From positions 1-61,265 of IMG/VR virus record IMGVR_UViG_3300045988_080771: DNA of 61,265 nucleotides. The stretch is one strand, 5' to 3'. Position 1 is the first letter of the stretch, and each line of letters opens with the position of its first letter. The notes under the pieces are model-generated. The model made no database searches and had not been told where the DNA came from. It worked only from the letters and a program-made list of their open reading frames with translations. The DNA comes from a virus. Below are positions 5,645 through 40,744 of the stretch, piece by piece. The position numbers and the translations under genes are program-made.

Positions 5645-5657
5645 CCTAGGAGATATT

Positions 5658-6407: not shown

Positions 6408-6408
6408 T

Positions 6409-6436
6409 TCGCGATATTTTCATCGCCCTTAATGAA
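6409..6436 (+). promoter_or_regulatory. PE-12
   Basis: tcgcgatattttcatcgcccttaatgaa; ATG at 6461. Confidence 0.6.
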
Positions 6437-6460
6437 ACCTAGATATTCGAAAGGAGTATC

Positions 6461-10264: not shown

Positions 10265-10828
10265 ATGAACATCGATCTGAACCGATATGCTATGAAACGA
10301 TACGGTAACGGTGAATACGTTGGCTGGCTTATCGACAGAGTCGATGCATCTGATTACGATCAACTCGCAATAGCACTATTCAATATTGATTACTATTGGG
10401 ATATTCCAATGGATCAGAACCGTGCCGATGACGGTATATATTTGCGTCAGGTTTATTCTGATGAAACAGGTAAACACATCGATGCGGTTCTTGATCCATT
10501 GCTATCCACAGTACTTGAAATGCTTGTGGCATTTGCCGAACGAACCAATTTCATAACATCCGAGCGATACAGTACATCGCATTGGTTCAAGATGTTTATC
10601 TCGAATCTTGACATTGACTGGTATGATTATGCATATGTTGATGTCAATGGAATCGATAATGATGACATCATTAAAAAGGTGAATCACTTCATGCATCATG
10701 AGTACAATTATGATGGATCGAATGGTGGATTGTTCGTTGTGAATAATCCACCTCACGATCTTCGTGACACTGAGTTGTGGTATCAGATGCAGTATTGGAA
10801 TCAACAATTCGATATTCCAGAGATTTAG
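10265..10828 (+). CDS. hypothetical protein (187 aa)
   Basis: RBS gaggag; ORF track. Confidence 0.7.
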   Translation: MNIDLNRYAMKRYGNGEYVGWLIDRVDASDYDQLAIALFNIDYYWDIPMDQNRADDGIYLRQVYSDETGKHIDAVLDPLLSTVLEMLVAFAERTNFITSERYSTSHWFKMFISNLDIDWYDYAYVDVNGIDNDDIIKKVNHFMHHEYNYDGSNGGLFVVNNPPHDLRDTELWYQMQYWNQQFDIPEI

Positions 10829-10841
10829 AAAGGAGGATATT

Positions 10842-13724
10842 TTGGATCAGGTACAAGTGCATGAAGTTCACACTGGAAAGAACAAGGTAACCATTATCGC
10901 AGATCCTAAGATTCGTGGTTATCATGATCTTCTAGTGAGAGGCGGAGCATTCTACGCCGTTTATGATCCGGAATCTCACTTCTGGTCGAGGGATATTCGT
11001 AAACTTAGCGAGCTCATCGACAATGACATTAATCAGTATTACGATGATCATATTCAGGAACTGGAAGCTGAGGGATACACTGTAAGCCGTCAGCTTATGC
11101 AGAACATGTCAAACGGTGCATGGAATCGGTATATGAATTCATTCAAATATCTTCGTGACAATGAAGAGACATTGGACCAGAAGATGATATTTGCTGATCA
11201 AGTTCCGAGTCGAGAAGACTATGCAACCATGCAATTGCCATATTCTGTTGAACCAGGTGTATGTAATTCGTATAATAAATTGATGGGCGTTCTATATTCT
11301 GCGGACCAGCGTGAGAAACTGGAATGGGGAATCGGAGCGCTCGTCGATGGCACCCAGATAGATCAAATCCAGAAGATGTTTGTGATCTATGGCGATCCAG
11401 GAACTGGTAAATCAACGATCCTAAACATCATCGAAGAACTCTTTCCTGGATACATTGCATATTTCTCGGCTGATGAGTTGGGTAAAGGCTACACCTTTGC
11501 AACTGCTGCATTTAAGAACTCTCCGTTGATTGGCATCCAGCATGATGGCGATCTGTCGAAGATGTGGGATAACACAGTTCTGAATGAATTGGCAGCTCAT
11601 GAAACGATTGTCGTTAATGAGAAAGGTGTCAAGCAATATCCGATTCGTCCAAAGACTATGCTGTTTATGGCAACCAATAAGGCTGTCAAGATCACAGATT
11701 CGAAGGCTGGTCTTATTCGTCGTCTTATCGACATCGAACCAACTGGTACCAAGATGCCTCAAGATGAATATTTTGAGGCCATCGGTCAGATCAAATTCGA
11801 ATTGGGTGCCATTGCATACCATTGTCTTTCGGTATACAAGAGTCGTGGAGCTCATTATTATGATGGATATTCTCCGTTAAGTATGATCTCCAGGACGAAT
11901 GATATTTACAACTTCATTGAAGACAATTATGGTCTCGTAACTGATGCAGATGATGGAATCACACTTAACACTCTTTGGACAGCATTCAAAGAATGGCAGG
12001 ATGATACAAAGAACCAAATCGTAATGAAGCGAACAGACTTCATGTATGAAATGGCATCATATTACGATCGAATGGAACGTACTCGTCATGTCTCGAAATC
12101 ATATTCCACTTCAGGAGTGGTATTCTATGGTTTCAAATTTGACAAGTTTGAATCCAAGATCGAACGGATCACAGTCGGCACGCCTGACTGGCTGAAACTC
12201 GATAGTGATACGAGTGCCTTTGATACGATGGCTCAATCATATTCTGCACAACTCGCTCGTAACGATGAATGCGGAGCTCCACGAGTCTCTTGGGACAAGT
12301 GCACAACTACTCTCGCAGATATCGATACACATCAATTACATTGGGTCCGAGTACCTTCGAATCATATTGTTCTAGACTTTGATCTTCGTGGTGAAGACGG
12401 TGAGAAGAGTCTAGAAGCAAATATTGAAGCTGCAAAGGATTTTCCAAAGACATATGCTGAAGTATCCAAATCCGGTAATGGGCTACACTTGCATTATATT
12501 TATGATGGAGATGTGGACAAACTCAAGAACCTTTACAGCACTCATATCGAGGTAAAGGTTTACAAAGGTAAGTCCGCTCTTCGTCGTAAGTTGTATAAAT
12601 GCAATGATCTGGAAGTAGCGCATATTTCTTCAGGACTTCCACTGAAAGGAGAGAAGTCTATGATTAATAAATCGGAACTAGCAGACGAACAGCATCTTCG
12701 CAACATCATTAAGAACTGCTTACTCAAGAAGTATCAGCCTGGAACCAAACCCAGTATAGACTTTATTTGCAAGGTTCTAGATGAAGCTTATGAGCAAGGG
12801 CTCGCATATGATGTAAGCGATATGCGGAATGATATTCTGTCATTCGCCATGCGTTCTTCACATTGGGCTGACTATTGTATGACTGTAGTGTCCAATATGA
12901 AATTCAAATCTGAAAAAATGCCCGAAGGGAAATCTGATGAAAACATCGATAGTGTAGTCTTCTATGATGTCGAAGTTTTTCCCAATTTGTTCATGATCTG
13001 CTATATGCGAGATAATGAGGATGAAGTTCATTGCTGGATCAATCCACCTCGTAAGTCCGTAATGGCTCTTATGGAACAACCATTGGTTGGATTCAACAAT
13101 CGACGGTACGACAATCACATGCTCTATGCATGGGGTGGTCTTGGGTATGATAATTCGCAATTGTATGAATTGTCAAGCAAGATCGTGAATGGGGACAAAA
13201 ACGCATTATTCGGTCAAGCATACAATATATCCTATGCAGATATTTATGATTTCTCGTCGAAGAAGCAATCGCTTAAGAAATGGGAGATCGAATTAGGCAT
13301 TGATCATCATGAACTTGGAATGGATTGGACTAAACCAGTTCCCGAGAACATGTGGAAGGTCGTCGAAGGATATTGTAAGGATGATGTCCGAGCAACCAAG
13401 GCAGTCTTTCACCATTTGAGTGGTGATTTCGAAGCTAGAAAGATTCTTGCGCAGTTATCTGGATTGACGGTTAACGACACCAACAATACGCATACTGCGA
13501 AAATCATATTCGGCAATGAAATGCATCCTCAATCAAGTTTCAATTATCCGGATCTGGCCGAATTGTTCCCAGGCTATGTATTCGATCCATATGCTCCTAA
13601 GGACCAGAAGTCCAAGTATATGGGCGAGTATCCGTCAGAAGGCGGTTACGTATTTGTATATGGCATGGAGAATGGTGATGTCGATCAGGATTATATGAAT
13701 ATTAAACATCCATGGGAGGAATAA
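10842..13724 (+). CDS. fusion protein: SF3 (D5/P4-type) helicase + archaeo-eukaryotic-type primase + family-B DNA polymerase 3'-5' exonuclease domain
   Basis: Helicase: Walker A GDPGTGKST (11391-11417) and MLFMATN. Primase: VLDFDLRG and SKSGNGLHLHYIY (12369-12500). Exonuclease: Exo I FYDVEVFPN (about 12960), Exo II NNRRYDNHML, Exo III YCKDDVRAT. The protein ends 10 aa before the expected polymerase motif A. Start is uncertain: TTG at 10842 follows AGGAGG, with GTG at 10857 as the alternative. Confidence 0.75.
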   Translation: MDQVQVHEVHTGKNKVTIIADPKIRGYHDLLVRGGAFYAVYDPESHFWSRDIRKLSELIDNDINQYYDDHIQELEAEGYTVSRQLMQNMSNGAWNRYMNSFKYLRDNEETLDQKMIFADQVPSREDYATMQLPYSVEPGVCNSYNKLMGVLYSADQREKLEWGIGALVDGTQIDQIQKMFVIYGDPGTGKSTILNIIEELFPGYIAYFSADELGKGYTFATAAFKNSPLIGIQHDGDLSKMWDNTVLNELAAHETIVVNEKGVKQYPIRPKTMLFMATNKAVKITDSKAGLIRRLIDIEPTGTKMPQDEYFEAIGQIKFELGAIAYHCLSVYKSRGAHYYDGYSPLSMISRTNDIYNFIEDNYGLVTDADDGITLNTLWTAFKEWQDDTKNQIVMKRTDFMYEMASYYDRMERTRHVSKSYSTSGVVFYGFKFDKFESKIERITVGTPDWLKLDSDTSAFDTMAQSYSAQLARNDECGAPRVSWDKCTTTLADIDTHQLHWVRVPSNHIVLDFDLRGEDGEKSLEANIEAAKDFPKTYAEVSKSGNGLHLHYIYDGDVDKLKNLYSTHIEVKVYKGKSALRRKLYKCNDLEVAHISSGLPLKGEKSMINKSELADEQHLRNIIKNCLLKKYQPGTKPSIDFICKVLDEAYEQGLAYDVSDMRNDILSFAMRSSHWADYCMTVVSNMKFKSEKMPEGKSDENIDSVVFYDVEVFPNLFMICYMRDNEDEVHCWINPPRKSVMALMEQPLVGFNNRRYDNHMLYAWGGLGYDNSQLYELSSKIVNGDKNALFGQAYNISYADIYDFSSKKQSLKKWEIELGIDHHELGMDWTKPVPENMWKVVEGYCKDDVRATKAVFHHLSGDFEARKILAQLSGLTVNDTNNTHTAKIIFGNEMHPQSSFNYPDLAELFPGYVFDPYAPKDQKSKYMGEYPSEGGYVFVYGMENGDVDQDYMNIKHPWEE

Positions 13725-13969
13725 TGAATTATCAGTTAATCGAATATGCAGTTCGTCGCTATATCGATAAGAAAGGATATTTAAAACAGAAAAGAGATTA
13801 CAATCTGTCCATCAAATCGAGTGGATATATTTGTGGGAGTTACTATGCATTTGTCGTAACAGATGAACCAAGCGATGATCGTATTTACGAAGTAACGCAT
13901 CTGTCGAAGTCGAATACTACTGCGGTTAGCAGTTATCTTCAAGACGATAAAGCACCATTTTTCATATGA
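13724..13969 (+). CDS. hypothetical protein (81 aa), paralog of 14276..14554
   Basis: Shared blocks RRYI..K..LK, Y(A/Y)(F/Y)VVT and (R)(I/V)YEV(T/D)H; RBS gggagga; TAATG overlap. Confidence 0.65.
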   Translation: MNYQLIEYAVRRYIDKKGYLKQKRDYNLSIKSSGYICGSYYAFVVTDEPSDDRIYEVTHLSKSNTTAVSSYLQDDKAPFFI

Positions 13970-14040
13970 TAGATAAAAAGGAGTTAATCATGAATGATCA
14001 AAAAGATTATCAAGAATATGATCGAGAAATGATTCATATA
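13968..14040 (+). repeat. direct repeat copy 1 (RBS plus the first ~17 codons)
   Basis: gatagataaaaaggagttaatcatgaatgatcaaaaagattatcaagaatatgatcgagaaatgattcatata, matched to 14256-14334. Confidence 0.85.
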
Positions 14041-14238
14041 GCCGATATTGATACAGATCTACATCATTACGAAAACCTACTTGACAATCTACTTATCTAT
14101 GGTGATGATCGTAAGGATCGAACCGGCGTAGGAACTTCTGACGCAGATCGATATAACCAGAAGAGGTATCTGATGGAAACCCGTATGTCTGGTGCTCTGA
14201 CGAAGCTCGAGTCTGCGATAATTACTACATCTTCGTGA
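13990..14238 (+). pseudogene. chimeric remnant: the N-terminus of the 14276 ORF fused to a truncated thymidylate synthase N-terminal fragment
   Basis: Starts MNDQKDYQEYDREMIHI (as in the 14276 ORF), then [23 protein letters not shown] (ThyA-like; compare [13 protein letters not shown] in the intact thyA), then unrelated sequence and a stop. Confidence 0.6.
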
Positions 14239-14255
14239 TGGCGAAGATGAAAAGT

Positions 14256-14334
14256 AATAGATAAAGGAGTTAATCATGAATGATCAAAATGATCAAAATG
14301 ATTATCAAGAATATGATCGAGAAATGATTCATAT
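14256..14334 (+). repeat. direct repeat copy 2
   Basis: aatagataaaggagttaatcatgaatgatcaaaatgatcaaaatgattatcaagaatatgatcgagaaatgattcatat. Confidence 0.85.
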
Positions 14335-14554
14335 TTTCAATTCAGTTCGTCGTTATATCGAAGAGAAGGAATTTTTAAAAGAAGATTTCCGTCTAACCAT
14401 AAAAATGTATAGAGCATGTCTTGGACATCATTATGCATATGTCGTGACGAATGCTAAAAGTGACCCACGTGTCTATGAAGTGGATCATACCGATAATCCA
14501 GAGACCACCAAAGTTACCAGCTATCTTCGAGATGGCTATTCGATTTTAAAGTAA
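14276..14554 (+). CDS. hypothetical protein (92 aa), paralog of 13724..13969
   Basis: ORF track; RBS aaaggag. Confidence 0.65.
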   Translation: MNDQNDQNDYQEYDREMIHIFNSVRRYIEEKEFLKEDFRLTIKMYRACLGHHYAYVVTNAKSDPRVYEVDHTDNPETTKVTSYLRDGYSILK

Positions 14555-14576
14555 TAGATAAAGGAGTTAATCATGA
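14549..14576 (+). repeat. direct repeat copy 3 (28 bp, RBS portion only)
   Basis: aagtaatagataaaggagttaatcatga, identical to 14251-14278. Confidence 0.8.
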
Positions 14577-15466
14577 CTGGTATTGAAGAAACCTTTCCAG
14601 ACATTTATAAGAATGTTATGAAATATATGGACAATGATTTTATCAGAGTCGCGCATCTTCGTGATTCCACAACATTCTGTAACGATATGTATGAAAAGAC
14701 ATTGAAAAAGGTAGTCGATTTCGGAACTATTCGTAAGGATCGAACAGGAGTTGGTACTCTTTCAACATTTGGTCTCCGGATGGAATTCAATCTGTCGCTA
14801 TTTTTCCCACTGGTTACCACCAAGAAGGTATATTTGAAAGGTGTAATTGCCGAACTTCTGTGGTTCCTCAATGGTGATACCAACATCAAATACCTGAATG
14901 ACAATGGTGTTCATATTTGGGACGAATGGGCAGACGAGAATGGAGATCTCGGACCGATCTATGGTAAGCAATGGCGTGACTGGAATGGCGATCATATTGA
15001 TCAGATCCAAAATGCCATCGATCTTATCAAGAATGATCCATATTCTCGCAGGATCATTGTGAGTGCCTGGAATCCATCCCAGATTCCCGACATGGCTCTT
15101 CCGCCATGTCATACGTTCTTCCAGTTCTATGTTACGGAATCCGAACGTCTTGATTGTCAGATCTATCAGAGGTCTGCAGACATGTTCCTTGGAGTTCCGT
15201 TCAACATCGCATCATATTCTCTATTGACTATGATGATGGCCCAGCAGACTGGTCTTGAACCTGGACGTTTGATCTGGACTGGTGGCGATTGCCATATTTA
15301 TCTGAATCATTTCGATCAGGTTGAAACAGAGCTTCATCGAACTCCATATCCTTTCCCTACGATGAATATCGATAAAGCCAAGGATATTTTCAGTTACAAG
15401 CTTGAAGACTTCCATCTGGAAAACTACAAGTGTCATCCTGCAATCAAGGCTCCTGTGGCTGTATGA
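14573..15466 (+). CDS. thyA: thymidylate synthase (ThyA family)
   Basis: [31 protein letters not shown], catalytic ALPPCH, and [18 protein letters not shown] with the dUMP-type Asn. Confidence 0.9.
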
Positions 15467-15567
15467 TTGAAGAAATGTTTGAAAACTTCAGTGGCGAGAC
15501 ATTGATCGGTATTGCTATTATCGTGATATTTCTCGCCATTGCTCTATTTTTCGGAGATGAATCATGA
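15463..15567 (+). CDS. possible 34-aa hydrophobic coupling ORF between thyA and the PolB C-terminal half
   Basis: Translated by hand: [38 protein letters not shown] overlap with the thyA stop and with the start at 15564. Confidence 0.35.
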
Positions 15568-16640
15568 CTGACAAACCAATGCTAGGTGGTATGTTCGGTA
15601 ATGTCGCATTGTTAGATATTGCTTCGATGCATCCGCATTCGATCATTGCTATGAACATGTTCGGACCATATACGAAACGATACAAGGATATTCTAGACAC
15701 GCGTATCGCCATAAAGCATGGAGATTTCGAAACCGCTGAGAAGCTTCTGGACAACAAATTCACGGATGCTGAACTTCGTGAGAACCAGAAGATTCTATCG
15801 ACGGCATTGAAGATTCCTATCAATTCGGTTTATGGTTTGACTTCAGCTCATTTTCCGACAAGGTTCAATGATGTTGCGGCCGGACGACTCGATCGCAATA
15901 TGGACAATAAAGTTGCCAAGCGTGGTGCATTATTTATGATCACACTAAAGCACAAAGTCCAGGAGATGGGTTATACAGTAGTTCACATCAAGACCGATTC
16001 AATCAAGATCGCCGATGCTGATGATTATATTATCAACTGGGTGACTGAATTCGGCCATAAGTATGGATACACATTTGAGCATGAAGCAACCTATGACAAG
16101 CTTTGCATTGTCAATAAATCCACATATATTGCTCATTCCGCATGGGGTGAACATGCTGGTGAATGGACCGCTACTGGGTTGCAATTCCAGGTTCCTTATG
16201 TATTCAAAACCTTATTTTCAGGAGAACAAGTCAACCTGTCAGATCTATCGGAGGTCAAAAGTGTACAGACATCACTATATCTTGACTTCAATGAAGATTT
16301 GCCAGCAGATGAGCATAATTACTCATTCGTTGGAAAAGTTGGCGCATTCATTCCAGTCAAAAGTGGTTCCAATGGTGGTGAACTTGTCAGAAGCGATGGT
16401 AAAGGAGGATATTCAAGTGCTACCGGAGCAAAAGGCTATCGATGGAAAGAAGCATCATTAGTCCGCGAGAACAAACTCGCCGATGAAATCGACATGTCAT
16501 ATTACAACAAACTTGCCGATGATGCCATTGGAGCGATCAATGAACGTGGTGATTATAACTGGTTTGTTTCTGACGAACCTTATATTTCACCAAATCCAGA
16601 ATCAAACAAGACAATGGAGAGACTGTTCAATGGAGCTTAA
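15564..16640 (+). CDS. family-B DNA polymerase, polymerase-domain half (palm, fingers, thumb)
   Basis: Motif A LLDIASMHPHSII (15609-15641), motif B KIPINSVYGLT, motif C HIKTDSIKI (about 15981-16010). Own RBS ggag, with an in-frame stop 2 codons upstream. Confidence 0.8.
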   Translation: MTDKPMLGGMFGNVALLDIASMHPHSIIAMNMFGPYTKRYKDILDTRIAIKHGDFETAEKLLDNKFTDAELRENQKILSTALKIPINSVYGLTSAHFPTRFNDVAAGRLDRNMDNKVAKRGALFMITLKHKVQEMGYTVVHIKTDSIKIADADDYIINWVTEFGHKYGYTFEHEATYDKLCIVNKSTYIAHSAWGEHAGEWTATGLQFQVPYVFKTLFSGEQVNLSDLSEVKSVQTSLYLDFNEDLPADEHNYSFVGKVGAFIPVKSGSNGGELVRSDGKGGYSSATGAKGYRWKEASLVRENKLADEIDMSYYNKLADDAIGAINERGDYNWFVSDEPYISPNPESNKTMERLFNGA

Positions 16641-17698: not shown

Positions 17699-17765
17699 TA
17701 GTGGTCATGGAAGCTACCATTGTTGGTGCCCTGGTTGTGGTAAACAAGTGAACATCACGCGATAA
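17589..17765 (+). CDS. 58-aa zinc-ribbon-like protein (below the ORF-track cutoff)
   Basis: Translated by hand: MKTKVNRTSKEVKKEAKKAMKCHCDASIVILSRVLDDSGHGSYHCWCPGCGKQVNITR*. RBS gaaagga; its stop lies inside PE-13. Confidence 0.5.
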   Translation: MKTKVNRTSKEVKKEAKKAMKCHCDASIVILSRVLDDSGHGSYHCWCPGCGKQVNITR

Positions 17766-17784
17766 AATCACGCTCTTTAATGAA
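17757..17784 (+). promoter_or_regulatory. PE-13
   Basis: acgcgataaaatcacgctctttaatgaa; ATG at 17812. Confidence 0.6.
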
Positions 17785-17811
17785 GTAAACACTACTCATT
17801 AAGGAGAAATC

Positions 17812-18021
17812 ATGAACACTATTGTCGCAATCGCACTGATTGTCATTCTCAGTATTGCACTGATCTTCACCATTGCTACCGCATGTAACATTGCGAATGA
17901 ATCCGCATATGTTAAAACGGAATTGGTAAAGGTAAAGACTCTGCTAAAGACTGCATATGCTGTTAGTGACGATGCAACCAAAAATATTCTCGATAAAATC
18001 GATGAATTAAGCGTTTGCTGA
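17812..18021 (+). CDS. small membrane protein (69 aa)
   Basis: TM helix IVAIALIVILSIALIFTIA; RBS taaggag. Confidence 0.7.
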   Translation: MNTIVAIALIVILSIALIFTIATACNIANESAYVKTELVKVKTLLKTAYAVSDDATKNILDKIDELSVC

Positions 18022-18025
18022 ACGA

Positions 18026-18066
18026 CTTAAAGGTCTATGAAAAAATCATAGGCCTTTAAGTCTTTC
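18026..18066 (+). terminator. intrinsic terminator
   Basis: 15-bp stem cttaaaggtctatga-aaaaa-tcataggcctttaag followed by tctttct. Confidence 0.7.
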
Positions 18067-18067
18067 T

Positions 18068-18095
18068 CCGCGAATAAAACATCTCCCTTAATGAA
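18068..18095 (+). promoter_or_regulatory. PE-14
   Basis: ccgcgaataaaacatctcccttaatgaa; ATG at 18123. Confidence 0.6.
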
Positions 18096-18122
18096 GTAAA
18101 CCCATAAACTAAGGAGATGTAT

Positions 18123-18322: not shown

Positions 18323-18354
18323 AGACCCTGTGGAAACACAGGGTTTATATTTTT
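18323..18354 (+). terminator. intrinsic terminator, hairpin-family variant
   Basis: agaccctgtg-gaaa-cacagggttt followed by atattttt. Confidence 0.75.
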
Positions 18355-18367
18355 GAAAGGAATTAAA

Positions 18368-22370: not shown

Positions 22371-22916
22371 ATGGTAATGTGGTCTATAATTCCCCAACAT
22401 CCGAAATACACAGCATCGAATACTGGCGAGGTTTGCCGAATAAGCACTGGACATATTCTTAAGAAGTTCAAGATGCAAAATGGTTATAATTATGTCTGCA
22501 TCGATCGAAAGAATATTTTAGTCGCTCGTCTCGTCTGTGCTGCATTTATGGAAGACTTTGATATCGAAGACAGCTACATTGTCGTCCATCATATTCATGA
22601 TAAGAGCGATGATTCACTCGATAATCTTGAAATCATGGAACGTAGTGAGTTGCTTGATCTTGTTGAGCCATATTTCGCCGATGGTCTTCCGCGAGGTCGC
22701 GCCAGTCTGAAATACGGAACGAAATACGATAAGAAAGCTGTGCCGATTCAATGCATTGAAACTGGTCACATATTTCCATCCGCTAAACATGCTGCCAAAT
22801 GGCTCGAGCAAATCGGATGTGGATATTTGTGTGCCGGTTATGTTTATCGCATTGCAAAAGATAGCAAGGAAGGAGTTCGAGGTTACCATTTTCGACGTTT
22901 GGATAAACGCGAATAA
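22371..22916 (+). CDS. HNH homing endonuclease (HNH_3/NUMOD4-like)
   Basis: N-terminal W..IP..P.Y..S..G.V, HNH core VVHHIHDKSDDSLDNLEIM, and a C-terminal IENR-like segment IQCIETGHIFPSAKHAAKWL. Confidence 0.75.
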   Translation: MVMWSIIPQHPKYTASNTGEVCRISTGHILKKFKMQNGYNYVCIDRKNILVARLVCAAFMEDFDIEDSYIVVHHIHDKSDDSLDNLEIMERSELLDLVEPYFADGLPRGRASLKYGTKYDKKAVPIQCIETGHIFPSAKHAAKWLEQIGCGYLCAGYVYRIAKDSKEGVRGYHFRRLDKRE

Positions 22917-22934
22917 AACATGGCCCTTAATGAA
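22907..22934 (+). promoter_or_regulatory. PE-15 (overlaps the stop codon of the HNH gene)
   Basis: acgcgaataaaacatggcccttaatgaa; ATG at 22957. Confidence 0.6.
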
Positions 22935-22956
22935 ACCTAGTTGAAAGGATCATAAA

Positions 22957-23280
22957 ATGAAGAACAAATTCTATACAATAATGGATGCGTTTCAAATTGC
23001 TGGAAACCTTTACTTGTTAGGTTATTTTATCAACATTTTACGTCGCTCTCATGCATTGCATTTGAGGATTGAACGAGCTACATTTGTATCTGTTAATGAA
23101 ATGAGACATTATCTAGCAGACGCTATATATGAAATTTCACCAAAGTGCAAAATTATGTTCGACAATTCCGAATTCGATGATGACGGGACCGTCGGTATTC
23201 GTGTTGATAATATGACCAAGAAAGAACGAATTCAGCTTGAATCTGTTATTCCATATTGGCATAGCATCCACATCGGATGA
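22957..23280 (+). CDS. hypothetical protein (107 aa)
   Basis: RBS gaaagga; ORF track. Confidence 0.7.
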   Translation: MKNKFYTIMDAFQIAGNLYLLGYFINILRRSHALHLRIERATFVSVNEMRHYLADAIYEISPKCKIMFDNSEFDDDGTVGIRVDNMTKKERIQLESVIPYWHSIHIG

Positions 23281-23296
23281 TTCATATTTAACTATC

Positions 23297-23332
23297 AAAG
23301 AAACTCGATTTAAAAACATCGGGTTTCTTTTT
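23297..23332 (+). terminator. intrinsic terminator
   Basis: aaagaaactcga-N10-tcgggtttcttt followed by tt. Confidence 0.6.
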
Positions 23333-23350
23333 GCCTTAATGGAGGATAAA

Positions 23351-23671
23351 ATGTCAAAGTATCAATTAGAGCGTAAATTCCAAAGTAAGCTAAAAGATCA
23401 TATTTGGGAACGAATTCCAGATTGCAAAATCATTAAGAATGATCCGACCGGTCTTCAGGGTGTTCCTGATCTTCTGGTTCTTTATCATGGACGATTTGCC
23501 GCTCTCGAATGCAAACGAAATGCAGACGCTGCTCATCGTCCGAATCAGGATTATTATATCAAGCAGTTTGCTGTGGATGGTTATGCTACATTTGTATATC
23601 CCGAGAACGAAGCACAAGTGGTTGACGATCTGGTTTCATATTTTGGAGTTGATAATGATAAAGTTCAATGA
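23351..23671 (+). CDS. VRR-NUC / PD-(D/E)xK nuclease (106 aa)
   Basis: GVPDLLVLYHGRFAALECKR; internal ATG with RBS ggagga. Confidence 0.6.
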   Translation: MSKYQLERKFQSKLKDHIWERIPDCKIIKNDPTGLQGVPDLLVLYHGRFAALECKRNADAAHRPNQDYYIKQFAVDGYATFVYPENEAQVVDDLVSYFGVDNDKVQ

Positions 23672-24236
23672 TCATCATAAACTGGAAGGCACACATGCAT
23701 ATTTGAGTGCAAGTAAGTATTCATGGGTGAATTACGATGATGAACATTTTATCAATACATATCGTAATTCACAAGCAGCAGAGCTTGGAACAAAGATCCA
23801 TGCGCTCGCGGCTGAATTGATTTCTTTCAAACAGCATCTGCCTGAAGAACGCAAGACACTCAACATGCATGTGAATGATGCGATCGATCTTGAGATGAGT
23901 CCTGAGGTCGTGTTATATTACTCTCCATATGCGTATGGAACGAGCGATGCCATATCTTATGATCCAGAGAATCATTTTCTTAGGATTCATGATCTTAAGA
24001 CGGGAACTATACCAGCGAAGATGACTCAGTTATATGTTTATGCTTCACTCTTTTGTCTCGAGTATGATCTCCTTCCTACTGAAATTAAATCTGAATTCAG
24101 AATCTATCAGAATGACGAAGTCTTTGTCGATCCAACCCCGGACGTCGACAAGATCTCACACATCATGGATAAGATCGTTCACTTCGATGATCTTATCAAT
24201 CAGATGCGTCTTGAGACAGGCGGCATTAAAATGTAG
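23655..24236 (+). CDS. PD-(D/E)xK exonuclease (RecB/Cas4/YqaJ-like, 193 aa)
   Basis: YGTSDAISYD ... RIHDLKTG (a D ... D-x-K arrangement); internal ATG with RBS ggag. Confidence 0.5.
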   Translation: MIKFNDHHKLEGTHAYLSASKYSWVNYDDEHFINTYRNSQAAELGTKIHALAAELISFKQHLPEERKTLNMHVNDAIDLEMSPEVVLYYSPYAYGTSDAISYDPENHFLRIHDLKTGTIPAKMTQLYVYASLFCLEYDLLPTEIKSEFRIYQNDEVFVDPTPDVDKISHIMDKIVHFDDLINQMRLETGGIKM

Positions 24237-24243
24237 TAATTTT

Positions 24244-24272
24244 TCGCGAAAAAAACATGGGCTTTAATAGAA
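24244..24272 (+). promoter_or_regulatory. PE-16 (97-nt leader before the RNAP-like gene)
   Basis: tcgcgaaaaaaacatgggctttaatagaa. Confidence 0.55.
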
Positions 24273-24368: not shown

Positions 24369-27344
24369 ATGAACTTTGTTGGCCAACAAGAAACTTATTC
24401 CGACGATTTGAACGAAGTAGACAATTATATCGAGCACTACGGAACTCCTCATTCTGGAGCCGTCCCGCATTCTGGACGATATCCTTGGGGTTCTGGTGAT
24501 TCCCGTTTCAAAGATGCGGGAAGTTTTCTAAGCCGATATCATGAACTACGAAAGTCTGGTATGTCTGATGCTCAAGCTGCGAAAGCTTTAGGTATGACTA
24601 CCAATCAGATTCGTGCATATCGTTCCATCGCTACCAATCAAGAGCGCGCCGCACTTTCTGCTAAAGCATATAAGCTTAAGGAACGTGGTTGGGGTGCTAC
24701 CGCTATTGCTAAAAAGCTTTCCGAAAGTGAAGGGCGAGAGATCAATGAGTCGACCGTCCGTTCTCTTTTGGATCCTTCTCGTAAAGCTCGAATGGATTCA
24801 ACTACTCAACTTGCGGAGTCTCTTAAGAAGACAATCCCTGAAGGTGGAGCAGTTTCAATCGGTAAGGGTGACGAGCTATTTCTTGGTGTAACCGCGGACA
24901 AATTGAAAGTCGCTACGACTATGCTTGAGTCCGAAGGATATCAAGTAAAGAATCTTTACGTTGATCAGCTTGGAATGAAGGGCAAGAAAGTTACTGTTAA
25001 AGTGCTTGCTGCCCCTGGAGCAAAGCTGGACGATCTTTATAACAATCCAGACAAAGTTGCATTCATTGCTAAGTCAGAACCAATAGCTGAAGCTAATGAT
25101 CTTGGATTAAAACCACCAGTTGCTGTAAAGTCATCTCGTGTCGCCGTTCGTTATGGAGATAAAGGCGGTGTCGAGAAAGATGGCACTATGGAGATTAATC
25201 CTCAAGCTGTTGATCTTCGTCTTTCACCTAAAGGTGTTGATAAGAAATACGCCCAGGTTCGAATCTCTGTTGATGGCACCCATTACTTAAAGGGTATGGC
25301 CGTTTATGGTGATCCTAAATCATTCCCTCCTGGTGTTGACATCATATTTAACACTAACAAAAATAGCAGCACTCCAAAAATGGATGTGTTCAAGAAGATG
25401 AAGGATGATCCCGATAATCCATTCGGTGCAACCGTACGACAGTATGATTACATTGATCCAAAGACTGGAAAGACTAAACAATCTCCAATCAATCTTGTGA
25501 ATGATGAAGGTACTTGGTCTGAATGGAGTCGTAATCTTCCTTCTCAGGTTCTTTCGAAGCAGTCTGAGGCATTGGCTAAACGACAGCTTGGATGGGCTTA
25601 CGATCGTTACAAAATGGAATATGATGAGATTAATTCTCTGACTAATCCAGTGGTTAAACGAAAGTTGATGAAAGAGTTCTCTGATTCATGCGATTCTGCA
25701 GCAGTTCATATGAAGGCGGCTGCAATGCCTAGGCAGAGTACTCGAGTAATTCTTCCTATTCCTTCTTTGAAGGATAATGAGATCTATGCTCCTCATCTTA
25801 ACAATGGTGAGAAGGTAGTTCTTGTTCGTTTTCCACATGGCGGTCGTTTCGAAATACCTGAACTGATTGTTAATAACAACAATCGAGAAGGCAAACGAGT
25901 TCTTGGAACAAACCCTAAGGATGCTGTTGGAATCAATGCCCATGTTGCTGGAATCCTTTCAGGTGCGGATTTCGATGGTGATACTGTTCTCGTAATTCCA
26001 AATAATCGAGGAGAGTTTAAACGAAGAGATCCATTGCCTGGTCTTAAGAACTTCAATCCTAGTGAGGCATATCCAAAGTATGAAGGTATGAAAGTTATAT
26101 CCTCTCGAGAGAAACAGCTTGAGATGGGTAAAGTTTCGAACCTTATTACTGATATGACTCTCAAGGGTGCAGGATGGGATGAGATTGAACGTGCTGTCAA
26201 ACATTCTATGGTCGTGATCGATTCTGAAAAGCATGAGTTGAACTACAAACAATCTGAGAAGGACTATGGAATCCGTGCTTTGAAAGCTAAGTGGCAAGGT
26301 GGTTCTAATAAAGGTGCCTCCACTCTTATTTCGAAAGCAACATCCGATGCCCGTATCAATGAAAGAAAGCTCCGCTCTGCTAAAGATGGTGGTCCTATTG
26401 ATCCAAAGACCGGTAAGTATGTTTGGGAAGAGACTGGGTCTCATTATGAAGTGACCAAGTCCCATACAATTAAACCTTCTGATATTAAGAATGGTAAAGT
26501 AACCGACCCAGTCTCTGGTAAAAAGGTCCCCGTCTTTTCTGAGGAGACCACCACTAAGTCTGGTCGTAAGAAAGTTTCTTACTACTATGAGGCCCTTGAT
26601 TATAAAGGTGACCCCGTCTTTGATAAAAAGACCGGGGCTCGTAAACGTGGAACTAAGGCCACCACCTTTGATGATAAAGGTAACCCAATAGTTGAAACTA
26701 AATACCGCCAGGTTAAGGTACCTAAGATGTCCCTTGTGGACGATGCCCTATCTCTTTCTTCAGGTACGGGCATGGAAGAAATTTATGGTACCCATGCTAA
26801 TAAATTAAAAGCCCTTGGTAATGAAGCCCGTAAGACCTATGTCAATACAGAGGTCTTTAAGGTGGACTCAAAAGCACGTACCCAATACGCAAGCGAGGTT
26901 GCTTCTCTCAATGCTAAGCTTAATACTGCATTGAAGAACATGCCTTTGGAAAGGCGTGCGCAAATGCTTGCTAATCAACAAGTAAAAGCTCGTCAATATG
27001 ACAATCCAAATCTGGATGAAGACCAGCTTAAGCGGTTGAAACAGCAGGCCCTCCATGGTGCTCGATTGAAGGTCGGTGCCGATAAGAAGTCAGTCACAAT
27101 ACACATTACTGATGGTGAATGGAAAGCGATTCAAGATCGTGCAATTTCATCTAGCAAACTGGAAGAGATTCTAAGGTTCGCGGATGAAGATGAAGTAAAG
27201 CAACTCGCATTGCCTCGTCAAGGAGTAAAGGTTCCGCCTTACATCATTTCAAAGGCAAAAACCTTGATCAATAAAGGTTATACTGTGGCAGAAGTAGCTG
27301 ATGCAGTGGGCGTTAGTGTGTCGACTCTTGAGAAAAGTCTTTAG
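24369..27344 (+). CDS. putative single-polypeptide double-psi-beta-barrel RNA polymerase (YonO / RdRP-like) with N- and C-terminal HTH segments
   Basis: aa 261-270 RYGDKGGVEK resembles beta RHGNKGVISK. aa 484-543 VLVRFPHGGRFEI..INAHVAGILSGADFDGDTVLVIP resembles beta-prime [37 protein letters not shown]. HTH-like segments at aa 65-134 and 962-991. Confidence 0.6.
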   Translation: MNFVGQQETYSDDLNEVDNYIEHYGTPHSGAVPHSGRYPWGSGDSRFKDAGSFLSRYHELRKSGMSDAQAAKALGMTTNQIRAYRSIATNQERAALSAKAYKLKERGWGATAIAKKLSESEGREINESTVRSLLDPSRKARMDSTTQLAESLKKTIPEGGAVSIGKGDELFLGVTADKLKVATTMLESEGYQVKNLYVDQLGMKGKKVTVKVLAAPGAKLDDLYNNPDKVAFIAKSEPIAEANDLGLKPPVAVKSSRVAVRYGDKGGVEKDGTMEINPQAVDLRLSPKGVDKKYAQVRISVDGTHYLKGMAVYGDPKSFPPGVDIIFNTNKNSSTPKMDVFKKMKDDPDNPFGATVRQYDYIDPKTGKTKQSPINLVNDEGTWSEWSRNLPSQVLSKQSEALAKRQLGWAYDRYKMEYDEINSLTNPVVKRKLMKEFSDSCDSAAVHMKAAAMPRQSTRVILPIPSLKDNEIYAPHLNNGEKVVLVRFPHGGRFEIPELIVNNNNREGKRVLGTNPKDAVGINAHVAGILSGADFDGDTVLVIPNNRGEFKRRDPLPGLKNFNPSEAYPKYEGMKVISSREKQLEMGKVSNLITDMTLKGAGWDEIERAVKHSMVVIDSEKHELNYKQSEKDYGIRALKAKWQGGSNKGASTLISKATSDARINERKLRSAKDGGPIDPKTGKYVWEETGSHYEVTKSHTIKPSDIKNGKVTDPVSGKKVPVFSEETTTKSGRKKVSYYYEALDYKGDPVFDKKTGARKRGTKATTFDDKGNPIVETKYRQVKVPKMSLVDDALSLSSGTGMEEIYGTHANKLKALGNEARKTYVNTEVFKVDSKARTQYASEVASLNAKLNTALKNMPLERRAQMLANQQVKARQYDNPNLDEDQLKRLKQQALHGARLKVGADKKSVTIHITDGEWKAIQDRAISSSKLEEILRFADEDEVKQLALPRQGVKVPPYIISKAKTLINKGYTVAEVADAVGVSVSTLEKSL

Positions 27345-27361: not shown

Positions 27362-27709
27362 ATGTCTGTTGAATACATGCTTACTACTATTGATAATCCT
27401 TTTAATCCTTTTATTGATTTCGATCGTTGGTATGGCTTTGACATTACTCAAGGTCATTACACAAGTGAATACATCGCTCGAATCGCTGTTGACAGTGCAC
27501 TATTGTCTGATGAAGAACGTTCTGAGGAATACAATCGTGCTATTCAATGGATCTTAGACAATGATGTTTTAGGATTGTATGTTCGTATTACGAAAGACAA
27601 TGCTGATTCTATTATTGCTAAGAACCTGAAACATTCTGAAGATTCTTTAGATAATTCTTTAGATAATTCTTTGGATAATTCTTTGGATAATTCTTTGGAT
27701 AATTCTTGA
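27362..27709 (+). CDS. hypothetical protein (115 aa) whose C-terminus is encoded by the 12-bp tandem repeat
   Basis: ORF track; tail DSLDNSLDNSLDNSLDNSLDNS. Confidence 0.65.
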   Translation: MSVEYMLTTIDNPFNPFIDFDRWYGFDITQGHYTSEYIARIAVDSALLSDEERSEEYNRAIQWILDNDVLGLYVRITKDNADSIIAKNLKHSEDSLDNSLDNSLDNSLDNSLDNS

Positions 27710-27733
27710 GATAATTCTTTTGAATCTTTGAAT
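27638..27733. repeat. tandem 12-bp repeat, about 7-8 units (GATAATTCTTTR)
   Basis: Read directly: gataattcttta / gataattctttg x3 / gataattcttga / gataattctttt, plus degenerate flanking units. Confidence 0.9.
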
Positions 27734-27737
27734 GTTG

Positions 27738-27898
27738 TATTTGAATCTCAAATGAATTGAATTGTTTGCATTCATTCGATTGCTATTATTGATTCGCTTC
27801 AAATCAATGTCCGTTTATTTCTCCTTAATTTATTGGTTAATAGATTGATAATAGTAATCGATTGTGTGCATTCAATTCGATTCATTTGAATTCAAATC
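27738..27898. repeat. imperfect inverted repeat with ~45-bp arms (27738-27782 and 27856-27898)
   Basis: tatttgaatctcaaatgaattgaattgtttgcattcattcgattg compared with the reverse complement of aatcgattgtgtgcattcaattcgattcatttgaattcaaatc. Confidence 0.7.
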
Positions 27899-27985
27899 TT
27901 AATTCATTTAATTTAAATTTAAAATATTTTTAATTTAAAATAATTTAAATACTTTAAATATAAATATAATATGGATTGAATATAA

Positions 27986-28056
27986 ACCCTCCCCGGGGGT
28001 CCGCGAAAATATACCCCCTCCCGCATCGCCGCCCTCCTCAAAAAATCTCCGCGGGG
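27986..28056. other. isolated GC/C-run-rich tract within an AT-rich intergenic region (candidate cos/pac or protein-binding site)
   Basis: ccctccccgggggtccgcgaaaatataccccctcccgcatcgccgccctcctcaaaaaatctccgcgggg, immediately after about 70 bp of near-pure A/T (27905-27975). Confidence 0.4.
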
Positions 28057-28279
28057 ATATTTTGGGAGACCTTTTTAGTGGTCCAGGGCGAATATGTTAT
28101 ATTTTAGAGTGGTAAGCCTGTCTGTCAGTGGGTTTGGTAAACAAAACTGCGCAGACATGACCCTTTAAACTAGGCATAAAGGGGCGCAAACTCCTTTCGA
28201 AGCCATTAAAACTCATTGATGGACAGCCTTATCTCTCTAAAAGCCTAGTGATCTATACTTGAAATGGAGTCGATTTGTC

Positions 28280-39294: not shown

Positions 39295-40353
39295 ATGAAG
39301 TCTTGGGAAACTCTTGACGCTGATAAGGTCAAGATTATCAATACTCATTTCACTCCGGGACGTTCCGGAAATTCTATTCGTTATATTGTGGTTCATCATA
39401 ATGGCGGAAATCTGACTACTGAAGGCTGCTATAACGTCTGGCAGACCCGTGAGGCTTCTGCTCATTATCAGGTCGAAGCTAATGGCACAATCGGCCAGCT
39501 TGTCTGGGATAAAGACACTGCTTGGCACGCTGGAAACTGGAATGCCAATATCCAGTCCATTGGTATCGAGCACGCTGATGATTCAACTTCTCCGTGGCAT
39601 ATCTCCGATGCGACTCTGGATAATGGTGCACATCTCGTTGCTGCACTCTGCAAGTACTACAAGCTTGGTCGGCCGCAATGGGGTGTCAACGTCTTCCCTC
39701 ATAGCCATTTCTCTTCCACCGCCTGCCCGGCATCTATTGCTGGAAATCAGCGCGATGCATATATGGCGAAGGCTCAGGCATACTATGATTCTATGACTGG
39801 CTCTAAGCCTTCTCCAACTCCTATTAAGCCTGCAACTACTCCAACTGCTTCTCAGACCGGTTCTATTAATGCTGGTTCTTATACAGTTGTTGTTGATCAG
39901 CTCCACGTTCGTTCTGGTGCATCGACTTCGGCGTCTGTTGTTGCAACCTATACCCGTAATCAGATTGTCAATCTCGATGGCTGGATGACTGTTGCCGATG
40001 GATATAAGTGGGGTCGTTATACTGCATACAGCGGTGCGACTCGCTACATCGCTCTCGGAACGGCTGATGGTTCTCAGACCTATCTTTCAATTGGATCCGT
40101 TCCGTCTGTTGCCAATACCGTTAGCGCTGGGACTTATCGTGTTGCTGTCGAGGCTCTGAACGTTCGTTCTGCTCAGTCTCTGGCATCTACGGTCGTCGCA
40201 ACCTATCGTTCTGGTCAGACTGTGATCCTCGACGGTTGGAGCGGAATCCATGACGGATATCTGTGGGGTCGTTACACCGCATACAGCGGTGCGCTTCGTT
40301 ACATTGCAGTCGGAACCGCTGACGGATCTACTCGCTATCTGACGAAGATCTGA
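39295..40353 (+). CDS. N-acetylmuramoyl-L-alanine amidase (amidase_2/PGRP) with two SH3b-type repeats
   Basis: IRYIVVHHNGG...AHYQV...AWHAGNWNANIQSIGIEH, plus two ~75-aa repeats (G.Y.V....L.VRS.......VVATY...Q.V.LDGW......Y.WGRYTAYSGA.RYIA.GTADGS..YL). Confidence 0.85.
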   Translation: MKSWETLDADKVKIINTHFTPGRSGNSIRYIVVHHNGGNLTTEGCYNVWQTREASAHYQVEANGTIGQLVWDKDTAWHAGNWNANIQSIGIEHADDSTSPWHISDATLDNGAHLVAALCKYYKLGRPQWGVNVFPHSHFSSTACPASIAGNQRDAYMAKAQAYYDSMTGSKPSPTPIKPATTPTASQTGSINAGSYTVVVDQLHVRSGASTSASVVATYTRNQIVNLDGWMTVADGYKWGRYTAYSGATRYIALGTADGSQTYLSIGSVPSVANTVSAGTYRVAVEALNVRSAQSLASTVVATYRSGQTVILDGWSGIHDGYLWGRYTAYSGALRYIAVGTADGSTRYLTKI

Positions 40354-40363: not shown

Positions 40364-40744
40364 ATGGGAATAGAAGTTGATAGTATCGGCGAATTCAAAG
40401 ACACTCAGAAATGGCTCAAAGAGATGTCGAATAAATCGTACATCAAACAGCTTGATCAATATGGTCGTCGTGGTGTCGATGCATTGTCAGCAGCTACTCC
40501 TTATGACACCGGAACTACTGCTGTATCCTGGAGTTATGACATACAGGAGACAAGTTCCGGTGTCACTATAAACTGGTATAATTCCAACATAAACGATGGT
40601 GTGAACATCGCAATCATTATTCAATACGGACATGGTACTGGAACCGGTGGCTATGTGCAAGGCCGCGACTATATAAATCCGGCATTGCAACCGCTATTCG
40701 ATCAAATGTCCGAGGCTGTACGAAGGGTGGTGGCAAATGGCTAA
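40364..40744 (+). CDS. HK97 gp10-family protein
   Basis: SAATPYDTGTTAVSW...IIIQYGHG. Confidence 0.5.
   Translation: MGIEVDSIGEFKDTQKWLKEMSNKSYIKQLDQYGRRGVDALSAATPYDTGTTAVSWSYDIQETSSGVTINWYNSNINDGVNIAIIIQYGHGTGTGGYVQGRDYINPALQPLFDQMSEAVRRVVANG

Follow-up and report, generated by a model that had tools for sequence, protein, structure and literature searches.

The catalytic core of all cellular RNA polymerases has its simplest living relatives in the single-chain two-barrel RNA polymerases (RNAPs). Few of them have been studied so far (YonO, crAss gp66, and gp64 and gp96 of P23-45), and how they find their promoters is largely open. YonO of SPbeta is a proven DNA-dependent RNAP with an essential aspartate triad; it transcribes a late operon of 37 genes from one promoter, and its mode of promoter recognition has been described as open (PMC5467207). 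The non-virion two-barrel RNAP gp64 of phage P23-45 transcribes early genes from a promoter motif of its own (PMC10770324). We studied the gene of a candidate enzyme of this class in the IMG/VR virus record IMGVR_UViG_3300045988_080771, whose whole stretch of 61,265 nt is called here the window and whose source contig derives from the human-gut metagenome ERR636374. The open reading frame (ORF) 24369-27344, on the + strand, encodes a product of 991 amino acids (aa), referred to below as the window RNAP; these coordinates, taken from an initial annotation of the window, were exact, and gene calling done independently on the source contig gave the same boundaries.

The family to which the protein adds a new member was already known from computational work. 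Koert et al. (bioRxiv 10.1101/842583) reported it as a signature gene of a supergroup of actinophages and Firmicutes phages, with helix-turn-helix (HTH) domains at both ends and a DxDGD motif, obtained with their own alignment an HHpred match of 95.7% to the Pfam family of RNA-dependent RNA polymerases (RdRPs), and proposed RNAP activity; promoters were not mentioned. In our searches PHROG 4291 ("RNA-dependent RNA polymerase") matched the window RNAP at E = 0 with 1110 bits over aa 16-702, and the full-length match together with HTH modules at both ends placed it in the PHROG 4291 'HTH-RdRP-HTH' family. The initial annotation had called the whole group poorly characterised; this family had already been described and carries an RdRP label in databases.

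The family was found in 250 deposited phage genomes, and 249 of these records covered at least 80% of the query. Homologues from isolated phages were 37-52% identical to the window RNAP over at least 90% of its length, the nearest being that of Bifidobacterium phage BitterVaud1 (51.7%). By host genus the family counts 95 members in Arthrobacter, 55 in Gordonia, 54 in Streptomyces and 13 in Lactococcus phages, with further ones in Curtobacterium, Microbacterium, Rhodococcus, Faecalibacterium and Bifidobacterium. Most of the 250 GenBank records read 'helix-turn-helix DNA-binding domain protein' and a few RefSeq records "RNA-dependent RNA polymerase"; annotated members occur in actinobacteriophage clusters AM/AU/BI/CC/DJ/EL, in the Lactococcus 1706-like phages and in Faecalibacterium phage FP_oengus. 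The metagenomic family comprised about 1,200 clusters at 50% identity (E <= 1e-30). Nearly all of the top 150 metagenomic representatives spanned the full RNAP profile, and therefore the HTH-core-HTH layout is the family norm. A megablast of the RNAP gene and 25 kb of the window against phage records showed no close relatives, only thymidylate-synthase fragments. The isolate relatives have the same layout, gene order and cos sequence (see below); the window RNAP differs from them in its human-gut metagenomic source and in an extra insertion of about 90 aa (aa 690-780). Relatives measure about 870-930 aa, compared with 991 aa here, and tblastn alignments break in two around aa ~690-780; the insertion is lysine-rich and was modelled with high confidence. 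The features of the gene are the following (window coordinates, strand, feature and basis):

24369-27344, + strand, predicted single-chain two-barrel RNA polymerase ORF with HTH fusions (PHROG 4291; Foldseek probability 1.00 to QDE-1, gp64/gp62 and RDR2)
24516-24833, + strand, putative N-terminal helical DNA-binding region, aa 50-155, with two HTH units (AlphaFold2 helices H50-155; weak HTH matches)
24651-24770, + strand, second N-terminal HTH unit, about aa 95-134, sigma-region-4-like in relatives (Sigma70_r4_2 and Sigma70_r4 thresholds)
25119-25508, + strand, predicted beta-like barrel (DPBB-B, about aa 251-380; invariant columns and predicted strands)
25149-25178, + strand, motif RYGDKGGVEK, named as first barrel in the initial annotation, with unconserved lysines (family alignment)
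25734-26003, + strand, predicted beta-prime-like barrel (DPBB-A, about aa 456-545), with VLVRFPHGG and DFDGD (invariance in 82 representatives; hhalign to YonO)
26436-26708, + strand, lineage-specific beta-rich insertion, about aa 690-780, missing from most relatives (tblastn split; strands E686-E785 in the AlphaFold2 model)
27237-27338, + strand, C-terminal HTH, aa 957-990, ending ...KGYTVAEVADAVGVSVSTLEKSL (Pfam; helices H957-968, H973-980 and H984-990)

The AlphaFold2 model of the protein, with 58 relatives as input, had a mean predicted local distance difference test score (pLDDT) of 81.7 and a predicted template modelling score (pTM) of 0.69, and about 700 of the 991 residues formed the polymerase core. 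A Foldseek search of the PDB with this model, a check suggested in the initial annotation, gave 22 matches at E <= 1e-3, all of them two-barrel RNA polymerases and with a probability of 1.00. The best E value, 1.5e-8, belonged to QDE-1 of Neurospora and Thielavia; the phage matches were the non-virion RNAPs gp62 of P74-26 (8F5M) and gp64 (8F72), at E = 6e-7 to 3e-6, and plant RDR2 was matched at E = 6e-6. At weaker scores crAss gp66 and cellular beta-prime chains were matched, and a viral structure library returned proteins of uncultured phages likewise labelled RdRP. Template modelling scores (TM-scores) over whole chains were low (0.22-0.37), as expected because these enzymes have a common core and differing peripheries. 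Judged from these matches of the predicted model, the protein has the fold of the two-barrel (double-psi beta-barrel, DPBB) superfamily. Together with PHROG 4291 and the ordered invariant residues described below, this makes it very likely a single-chain two-barrel RNA polymerase, with both barrels fused in one chain as proposed initially by reference to YonO, QDE-1 and crAss gp66.

The top structural matches, QDE-1 and RDR2 (PDB 2J7N, 7Y7S, 7W82; probability 1.00), have the same catalytic residue set as the window RNAP, at 11-13% identity and whole-chain TM-scores of 0.22-0.30. Both are eukaryotic enzymes that use RNA or single-stranded DNA as template, and, unlike the phage protein, they lack HTH modules and promoters. 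The best phage matches were gp64 of P23-45 and gp62 of P74-26 (TM-score about 0.36, target-normalised); gp64 has about 590 aa and no described HTH fusions (PMC10770324), compared with the 991-aa HTH-fused window RNAP.

Residue conservation was analysed in an alignment of 82 representatives, mutually less than 50% identical and about 43-63% identical to the query. Invariant in all of them were G272, Q296, R298, K308, G309, R487, P489, D534, D536, G537 and D538, and D271 was conserved in at least 90%. Ruprich-Robert and Thuriaux (PMC2919709) listed eight universal residues of two-barrel enzymes: an Asp and two basic residues in the beta-like barrel (D837, K979 and K987 in Rpb2; D709, R738 and K743 in QDE-1), and an R-x-P pair plus the Asp triad in the beta-prime-like barrel (R446/P448 in Rpb1; R962/P964 in QDE-1). 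The conserved residues of the window RNAP agree with these in order. In the beta-prime-like barrel, VLVRFPHGGRFEI (aa 484-496) contains VLVRFPHGG with R487, P489 and H490 (nt 25818-25856), and DFDGD (aa 534-538, nt 25968-25982) is the sole DxDxD of the protein; both had been named as second-barrel motifs, and their key positions (R487, P489, D534, D536, G537, D538) proved to be among the invariant ones. Alignment by hhalign paired R487/P489 with YonO R492/P494, and D534-F-D536-G537-D538 with YonO DNDGD. The invariance of the catalytic residues over the diversity of about 1,200 clusters implies selection for catalysis.

For the beta-like barrel the initial annotation was correct in position only. 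RYGDKGGVEK lies, as given, at aa 261-270 (nt 25149-25178), and all the other motif positions were likewise exact on re-check. The likeness drawn between it and RHGNKGVISK fails because it rests on K265 and K270, which are not conserved: the family consensus at this place is VRYAEDGGxxxDG, and R257, Y262 and G267 are the only conserved residues close by. The conserved signature is D271-G272 (nt 25179-25184), Q296-V-R298 (nt 25254-25262) and K308-G309-M (nt 25290-25298), whose RdRP-type Q-V-R ... K-G-M part lies 30-45 residues downstream of that motif; the first-barrel motif had been placed about 10-40 residues too early, on non-conserved lysines. The strands predicted in this barrel by AlphaFold2 are E258-261, E273-276, E294-301, E305-313, E325-328, E358-362 and E369-379. 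Judging from pattern, order and predicted strands, D271, R298 and K308 would be equivalent to D709, R738 and K743 of QDE-1; the spacing from R to K is 10 here versus 5 in QDE-1 and YonO.

Links found by sequence comparison were fainter. A phmmer search of the PDB sequences with the window RNAP gave no matches, and the family profile found only HTH domains there, no polymerase. The Pfam RdRP family PF05183 matched neither the window RNAP nor, in precomputed annotation, any of 120 relatives, and in this the family differs from the relatives of YonO, which do match PF05183. An hhalign comparison of a first, low-diversity alignment with the single YonO sequence found nothing; family against family it gave one weak match (E = 0.024, probability 2%), placed exactly on the beta-prime-like barrel and extending over the following G-x-x-S-N-x-I-T helix. 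The paired segments were VVLIRYPHGG with VDVLRSPHLYR, GADFDGDTVLVIP with QFDNDGDKALVIQ, and MGxVSNLITD with IGEISNNITK. The tie to PF05183 and YonO is one of superfamily level, below family thresholds. Like the window RNAP, YonO is one chain, of about 100 kDa, with both barrels; it is a phage transcriptase without T7-like relative, as the window RNAP would be, and its invariants follow in the same order (D249-G250, V-R266, K271-G272, R492-x-P494-H495, D535-x-D537-G-D539).

The HTH modules set the family apart, as had been suggested at the outset, because YonO and its family lack HTH modules and end instead in a C-terminal CxxC...CxxC zinc ribbon, whereas the family studied here has HTH units at both ends. 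The AlphaFold2 model showed two HTH units within aa 50-155 (N-terminal pLDDT about 80) and one at aa 957-990, in agreement with the two N-terminal segments and one C-terminal segment noted at the outset. The C-terminal unit was above the Pfam cut-off (HTH_23, 27.3 bits; HTH_3, 23.9 bits) and weakly resembles the HTHs of small terminases. The N-terminal units gave weak Pfam and PHROG matches in the window RNAP itself; in relatives the second of them passed the Pfam thresholds of Sigma70_r4_2 (27-39 bits) and Sigma70_r4, and several relatives had Sigma70_r4 matches in the C-terminal HTH as well. Against the PDB, the family profile matched the HTH of Tn3 resolvase and region 4 of extracytoplasmic function (ECF) sigma factors.

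The largest repeat family of the window is a 30-nt element, TTCGCGAAAAAATCATnGcCCTTAATGAAA, here called PE. It is bipartite, with the pattern TCGC(G/A)-N9-ACA-N6-TAATGA(A/G), also given as TCGC(G/A)-N9-ACA-N6-T(A/T)TAATGA(A/G)A. A pattern search of the window gave 19 matches compared with 1.08 expected. The 18 distinct copies are all on the + strand and head gene clusters; AAGGAG ribosome-binding sites follow about 15-25 nt further on, and many copies come straight after hairpin terminators. They are distributed as follows, with scores from a position weight matrix (PWM):

24243-24272, + strand, PE upstream of the RNAP gene, TTCGCGAAAAAAACATGGGCTTTAATAGAA, 97 nt 5' of the start codon (PWM 27.8 bits)
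22906-22935, + strand, PE heading the conserved operon of small ORF, endonuclease, exonuclease and RNAP (PWM 30.7 bits)
60156-60705, + strand, first three PE copies, at 60156-60185, 60502-60531 and 60676-60705 (repeat finding, PWM)
17-6437, + strand, eleven PE copies heading small early genes, with hairpin terminators interleaved (repeat finding, PWM)
17756-18096, + strand, two PE copies, at 17756-17785 and 18067-18096, upstream of recombination/helicase genes (repeat finding, PWM)

The eleven early copies lie at 17-46, 346-375, 627-656, 1111-1140, 1438-1467, 1632-1661, 2073-2102, 3223-3252, 3476-3505, 5180-5209 and 6408-6437. Those at 60156, 60502 and 60676, which start right after the stop codon of the holin gene, are the only ones in the window with a canonical TATAAT. 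Between 24.3 and 60.1 kb the PWM scan found no PE site even at a threshold of at least 8 bits. Two families of near-identical hairpin-plus-T-tract terminators occur in the early regions only, one at 2033-2065, 2348-2380, 3451-3483, 5616-5648 and 18327-18359, and the other at 309-351, 18026-18068, 60461-60503 and 61114-61156. Their T-tracts often run into the TTCGCG of the next PE, forming cassettes of terminator, promoter-like element, ribosome-binding site and gene.

PE was not limited to the window. Five isolated RNAP-bearing phages had it, in the same register, as their top-ranking intergenic repeat, namely Bifidobacterium BitterVaud1, Arthrobacter Mudcat, Gordonia Duffington, Streptomyces RavenPuff (61% GC) and Lactococcus P078 (33% GC), whose hosts belong to two bacterial phyla; the consensus in relatives was TCGC(G/A)nnAAnTACAyGnCCTATAATGA(G/A)A. 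A strict regular expression, CGCG-N15-WTAAT, missed the element in P078, RavenPuff and Duffington, where de novo repeat finding revealed diverged versions, and a PWM was therefore used instead. Scanned over 80 metagenomic RNAP loci (953 kb, 31-58% GC), it gave 84 matches on the coding strand versus one on the other. Of 59 loci in which at least 2.5 kb of sequence precedes the RNAP gene, 36 had a PE in the last 2.5 kb before its start. In about 40 metagenomic loci, as in Mudcat, a copy equivalent to that at 22906 lay at a stereotyped position, about 900-960 nt upstream of the start. A PWM of the downstream half only (138 matches on the + and 6 on the - strand) still recovered the TCGC box at a fixed distance, and therefore PE is truly bipartite. 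Among phages that infect the same host genera but are unrelated, the four scanned (sk1, phiC31, GTE2 and ArV2) had no PE on either strand, nor had 50 kb of SPbeta, and PWM maxima in these control genomes were 4-12 bits versus 16-33 bits for real sites; the SPbeta region with the YonO promoter, unlike the RNAP phages studied here, has no PE-like element. Some lineages have variant hexamers, TTAAAT or TTAGAT in L056 (IMG/VR 3300015373_000004) and TTTTAT or TATTAT in L060-L074 and L066, and keep the flanking ACA and TGA(A/G); these could be natural variants of promoter specificity that can be paired with their enzymes. Literature searches for the PE motif returned nothing relevant and, as far as they reached, PE and its covariation with the HTH region (see below) are new.

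By its sequence, PE is not what one would expect of a sigma-A promoter. A sigma-70-type promoter would have a -35 hexamer 17 +/- 1 bp upstream of a -10 hexamer with A at -11 and T at -7. In PE, 13-14 bp separate the TCGC box from the hexamer, and there is no -35 at 17 bp and no extended TG. At the A(-11) position of sigma-A, 15 of the 18 window copies have T, and other lineages have the hexamers TTTTAT, TTAAAT or TATAGT. The TGA(A/G) adjoining the hexamer, dispensable for sigma-A, is nearly invariant. A generic sigma-70 scan of 20-36 kb remained at chance level (39 found versus 41.7 expected), and so did a terminator scan.

We then compared the fifth base of the upstream box (CGCG versus CGCA) with the columns of the RNAP alignment, using 12 non-redundant loci per class and label permutations. 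The two classes were phylogenetically mixed, with a mean RNAP identity of 0.520 within and 0.511 between them. Among the nine protein regions tested, covariation was enriched only in the N-terminal HTH region, aa 50-155, and the other eight were at chance: five columns of this region were above their own 99th percentile versus 0.57 expected, a number reached in 3 of 2000 permutations. These columns were 111, 135, 140, 143 and 149, and columns 104, 105, 110 and 142 also had p < 0.02, giving a cluster at aa 104-149. The result is suggestive of a modest covariation of the upstream box with an HTH region that is sigma-region-4-like in relatives. The initial annotation had ventured that the HTH segments could give the enzyme built-in promoter recognition, an idea that PE, conserved and promoter-like as it is, supports indirectly, as does its covariation with the N-terminal HTH region.

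The first 119 nt of the window (1-119) are repeated exactly at its end (61147-61265), and therefore the window represents a complete, circularly assembled phage genome of 61,146 bp. All its genes are on the + strand; a tRNA scan of the window found none, and Rfam gave no matches over it. PHROG and Pfam scans of the approximately 60 other ORFs resulted in this map:

60.2 kb through the circular junction to 6.4 kb, + strand, small early genes (PHROG/Pfam)
6.7-24.2 kb, + strand, replication/recombination genes: primase-polymerase, thymidylate synthase, annealing protein, helicase, HNH and VRR-Nuc nucleases, Cas4-like exonuclease (PHROG/Pfam)
22957-24236, + strand, upstream partners of the RNAP gene: small ORF 22957-23280, VRR-Nuc-type endonuclease 23351-23671, Cas4/RecB-type exonuclease 23655-24236 (PHROG; source-contig gene calls)
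27362-27709, + strand, conserved small ORF phrog_4303, always next after the RNAP gene (equivalents in relatives)
27990-28080, no strand assigned, cos site, the physical genome ends (conserved 70-nt element across loci, blastn-short)
28.3-60.2 kb, + strand, late block: terminase, portal, protease/capsid, tail, endolysin, 2,653-aa tape measure, tail proteins, holin (PHROG/Pfam)

Neither a sigma factor nor another RNAP turned up among these ORFs, in accordance with the initial remark that no sigma factor, T7-like RNAP or other RNAP subunit was visible elsewhere. The RNAP gene belongs to the replication/recombination module, outside the structural one. In P23-45 a virion RNAP that is part of the tape-measure protein makes the first transcripts of the gp64 gene, and the window phage differs in having no such RNAP: a hidden polymerase of this kind was looked for, and no structural protein had a DxDxD motif. 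The tape-measure protein (40737-48698), with 2,653 aa versus about 1,680 positions in the PHROG profile, also lacks an RNAP-like DxDxD and is therefore not a fusion of the P23-45 type. Literature searches found no virion proteome of any member of the RNAP family.

The order endonuclease, exonuclease, RNAP, small ORF and genome end is common to Mudcat, RavenPuff, Duffington and P078, and the window RNAP gene has the position typical of the family, with a Cas4-like exonuclease on its 5' side and the small ORF and right genome end on its 3' side. The conserved 70-nt element 3' of the gene was considered as a second, late promoter and proved to be the cos site. It contains the conserved CATCGCCGCCCT (28024-28035) and agrees with the sequence at the physical right termini of four linear genomes (RavenPuff, Mudcat, Duffington and P078), as well as with the left terminus of RavenPuff. 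In virion DNA no large gene therefore follows the RNAP gene towards the right end, which is about 690 bp away. The sequence, GGGGGTC...CACCCCCT.CC.CATCGCCGCCCT and then CCTC.AAAAAATCTCCG..GGGATATTTTGGGA, is common to Streptomyces, Arthrobacter, Gordonia and Lactococcus phages, across host phyla. Just before the cut, a GGGGG...CCCCC hairpin encloses CCGCGAAAATATA, which resembles half a PE. Between the small ORF and cos there is a 275-nt AT-rich block (27710-27985, down to 17% GC) full of short direct and inverted repeats (GAATTCAAAT, TTTAAAT), which may be a terminase-binding or origin-like sequence; an AT-rich dip followed by a GC-rich spike recurs 3' of the RNAP gene in many related loci. 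A 12-nt tandem repeat at 27630-27737 encodes a (DNSL)n C-terminus of the small ORF.

Other modules of the genome had peculiarities of their own. In relatives the primase-polymerase (phrog_4210) is encoded by a single gene of about 1,300 aa; here it is divided between two ORFs, 10764-13724 and 15564-16640, covering profile positions 8-949 and 953-1296. The intervening 1.8 kb (13725-15563) hold two to three small paralogous ORFs with identical AAAGGAGTTAATCATG starts and the thymidylate synthase gene, and Rfam detected no intron there. The endolysin (39295-40353) is an amidase whose C-terminal repeat is duplicated (39997-40085 and 40252-40340); its gene lies inside the tail block upstream of the tape measure, 20 kb from a Dp-1-type holin (59886-60155), and in Gordonia phage Duffington a lysin gene (lysin B) likewise precedes the tape measure. 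Two paralogues of phrog_2152, a family of unassigned function, are found in the early/replication region (5658-6407 and 8463-9377; E = 1e-65 and 1e-58).

Our preferred explanation is that a two-barrel DNA-dependent RNAP, of the QDE-1 and YonO-like class, would be the phage's own transcriptase and act without a separate sigma factor. The HTH modules would dock the enzyme on the phage-specific bipartite PE, the N-terminal sigma-4-like HTH reading the upstream TCGCR box, and transcription would start a few bases downstream of TAATGA. PE would drive the small early-gene clusters, the recombination genes and the nuclease-RNAP operon, and the PE-free 32-kb late block could be transcribed by polymerases that read on from the RNAP operon through the joined cos after circularisation. 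The data establish the fold, the invariant residues, the HTH modules, the position of cos, and the existence, orientation and lineage-specificity of PE; catalytic activity, a DNA template, the identity of the reader of PE, the pairing of HTHs with half-sites, the origin of the first enzyme molecules and the mode of late transcription are inferred. The promoter motif of gp64 (see above) is a precedent; that motif is GC-rich and unrelated to PE. A functional analogy, and only that, exists with T7-type single-subunit RNAPs, which also consist of one chain, need no sigma factor and use a long, highly conserved phage-specific promoter (23 nt) repeated many times in one orientation. Their fold is unrelated (Pol-A right hand versus two barrels), neither Pfam nor PHROG gave a T7-RNAP match in the window RNAP, and promoter reading, in contrast to T7, would fall to the appended HTH modules. 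That the RNAP itself reads PE as a self-sufficient transcriptase we hold to be evenly poised between right and wrong. We are a shade more reserved about the narrower proposal of a promoter-specific two-barrel enzyme with its own sigma-region-4-like HTH, factor-free on the 25-30-nt PE, which would be a counterpart of T7 RNAP with promoter and enzyme specificity co-evolving (CGCG versus CGCA).

Several points weigh against this explanation. The links to known RNAPs at sequence level are weak (see above), and the residue equivalences in the beta-like barrel are drawn from motif pattern and order. The PE hexamer is a perfect TATAAT in most relatives, which could serve host sigma-A as a -10-only promoter. 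Covariation was small (n = 24, global p about 0.04, nine regions tested). All the RNAP-bearing phages share other genes by descent, so the reader of PE could be some other conserved phage factor. Literature searches found no experimental work on any member of the family. Finally, the RNAP gene itself lies behind PE (22906 and 24243), which creates a chicken-and-egg problem for a PE-dependent enzyme: its first molecules would have to enter along with the DNA or be products of host RNAP. The PE copies with TATAAT (60156, 60502 and 60676) could serve both polymerases, but they are far from the RNAP gene. In lambda-like cos siphoviruses the last-packaged right end may enter the cell first, and by analogy the right end carrying the RNAP operon may do so here.

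The alternative that survives best, though we consider it on the unlikely side, is a division of labour in the style of T7 and YonO: host RNAP with sigma-A would read PE as a -10-only promoter, possibly with a phage factor bound to the TCGC box, and the phage RNAP, made early from PE, would start at one as yet unrecognised promoter and transcribe the 32-kb late block through the joined cos. The TATAAT of most relatives suits this scheme, and bootstrapping would be solved, since PE heads both the early genes and the RNAP operon. The 37-gene operon of YonO offers a parallel; the RNAP gene lies just upstream of cos and the late genes, and no PE or strong terminator intervenes between 24.3 and 60.1 kb. 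The features of PE argue the other way: the T at A(-11) in most window copies and the TTTTAT or TTAAAT of other lineages, the lack of a -35 box and extended TG, and the conservation of the whole 25-30-nt element over two host phyla and 31-61% GC, with its absence from unrelated phages of the same hosts. The upstream box, moreover, covaries with the RNAP's own HTH region, and the search for a conserved late promoter 3' of the RNAP gene yielded only cos.

It seems improbable that the polymerase has no messenger role and acts instead as an RdRP, or makes RNA near cos, as primers or as activating transcripts, in the service of replication or packaging, its HTHs targeting the genome end. Its closest solved structures are the RNA-silencing RdRPs QDE-1 and RDR2, and a passage of PMC9508822 credits QDE-1 with both DNA-dependent and RNA-dependent RNA polymerase activity. 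The gene stands in the replication/recombination module beside nucleases and near cos, the cos element includes the half-PE-like CCGCGAAAATATAC, and the weak likeness of the C-terminal HTH to those of small terminases would suit a role at the genome end. Nevertheless, the phage encodes its own primase-polymerase and has a DNA genome with no known RNA template, its function-tested phage relatives (YonO, gp64 and gp66) are DNA-dependent transcriptases, and 18 oriented, gene-proximal PE sites suit promoters rather than origins. A DNA-binding regulator with a catalytically inert or structural polymerase-like core, as the HTH label of most database records and the passing of Pfam thresholds by HTH families only might suggest, is very improbable given the invariant catalytic residues and the extent of the polymerase core, the label merely mirroring what Pfam detects.

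The RNAP family is a practical one, with 250 isolated phages, many from SEA-PHAGES, and easily grown hosts among Actinobacteria and Firmicutes, and it comes with a sigma-4-like HTH in the chain and a defined candidate promoter that varies in step with the N-terminal HTH region. A conserved, lineage-specific element unlike sigma-A promoters turns an annotation into a testable model of factor-independent initiation. Should PE prove to be a host promoter instead, the RNAP would still be a candidate late-gene transcriptase of a widespread phage lineage that also occurs in the human gut. If the RNAP reads PE, the family would provide a natural model for sigma-like functions built into a polymerase, and potentially orthogonal polymerase/promoter pairs for Gram-positive hosts.

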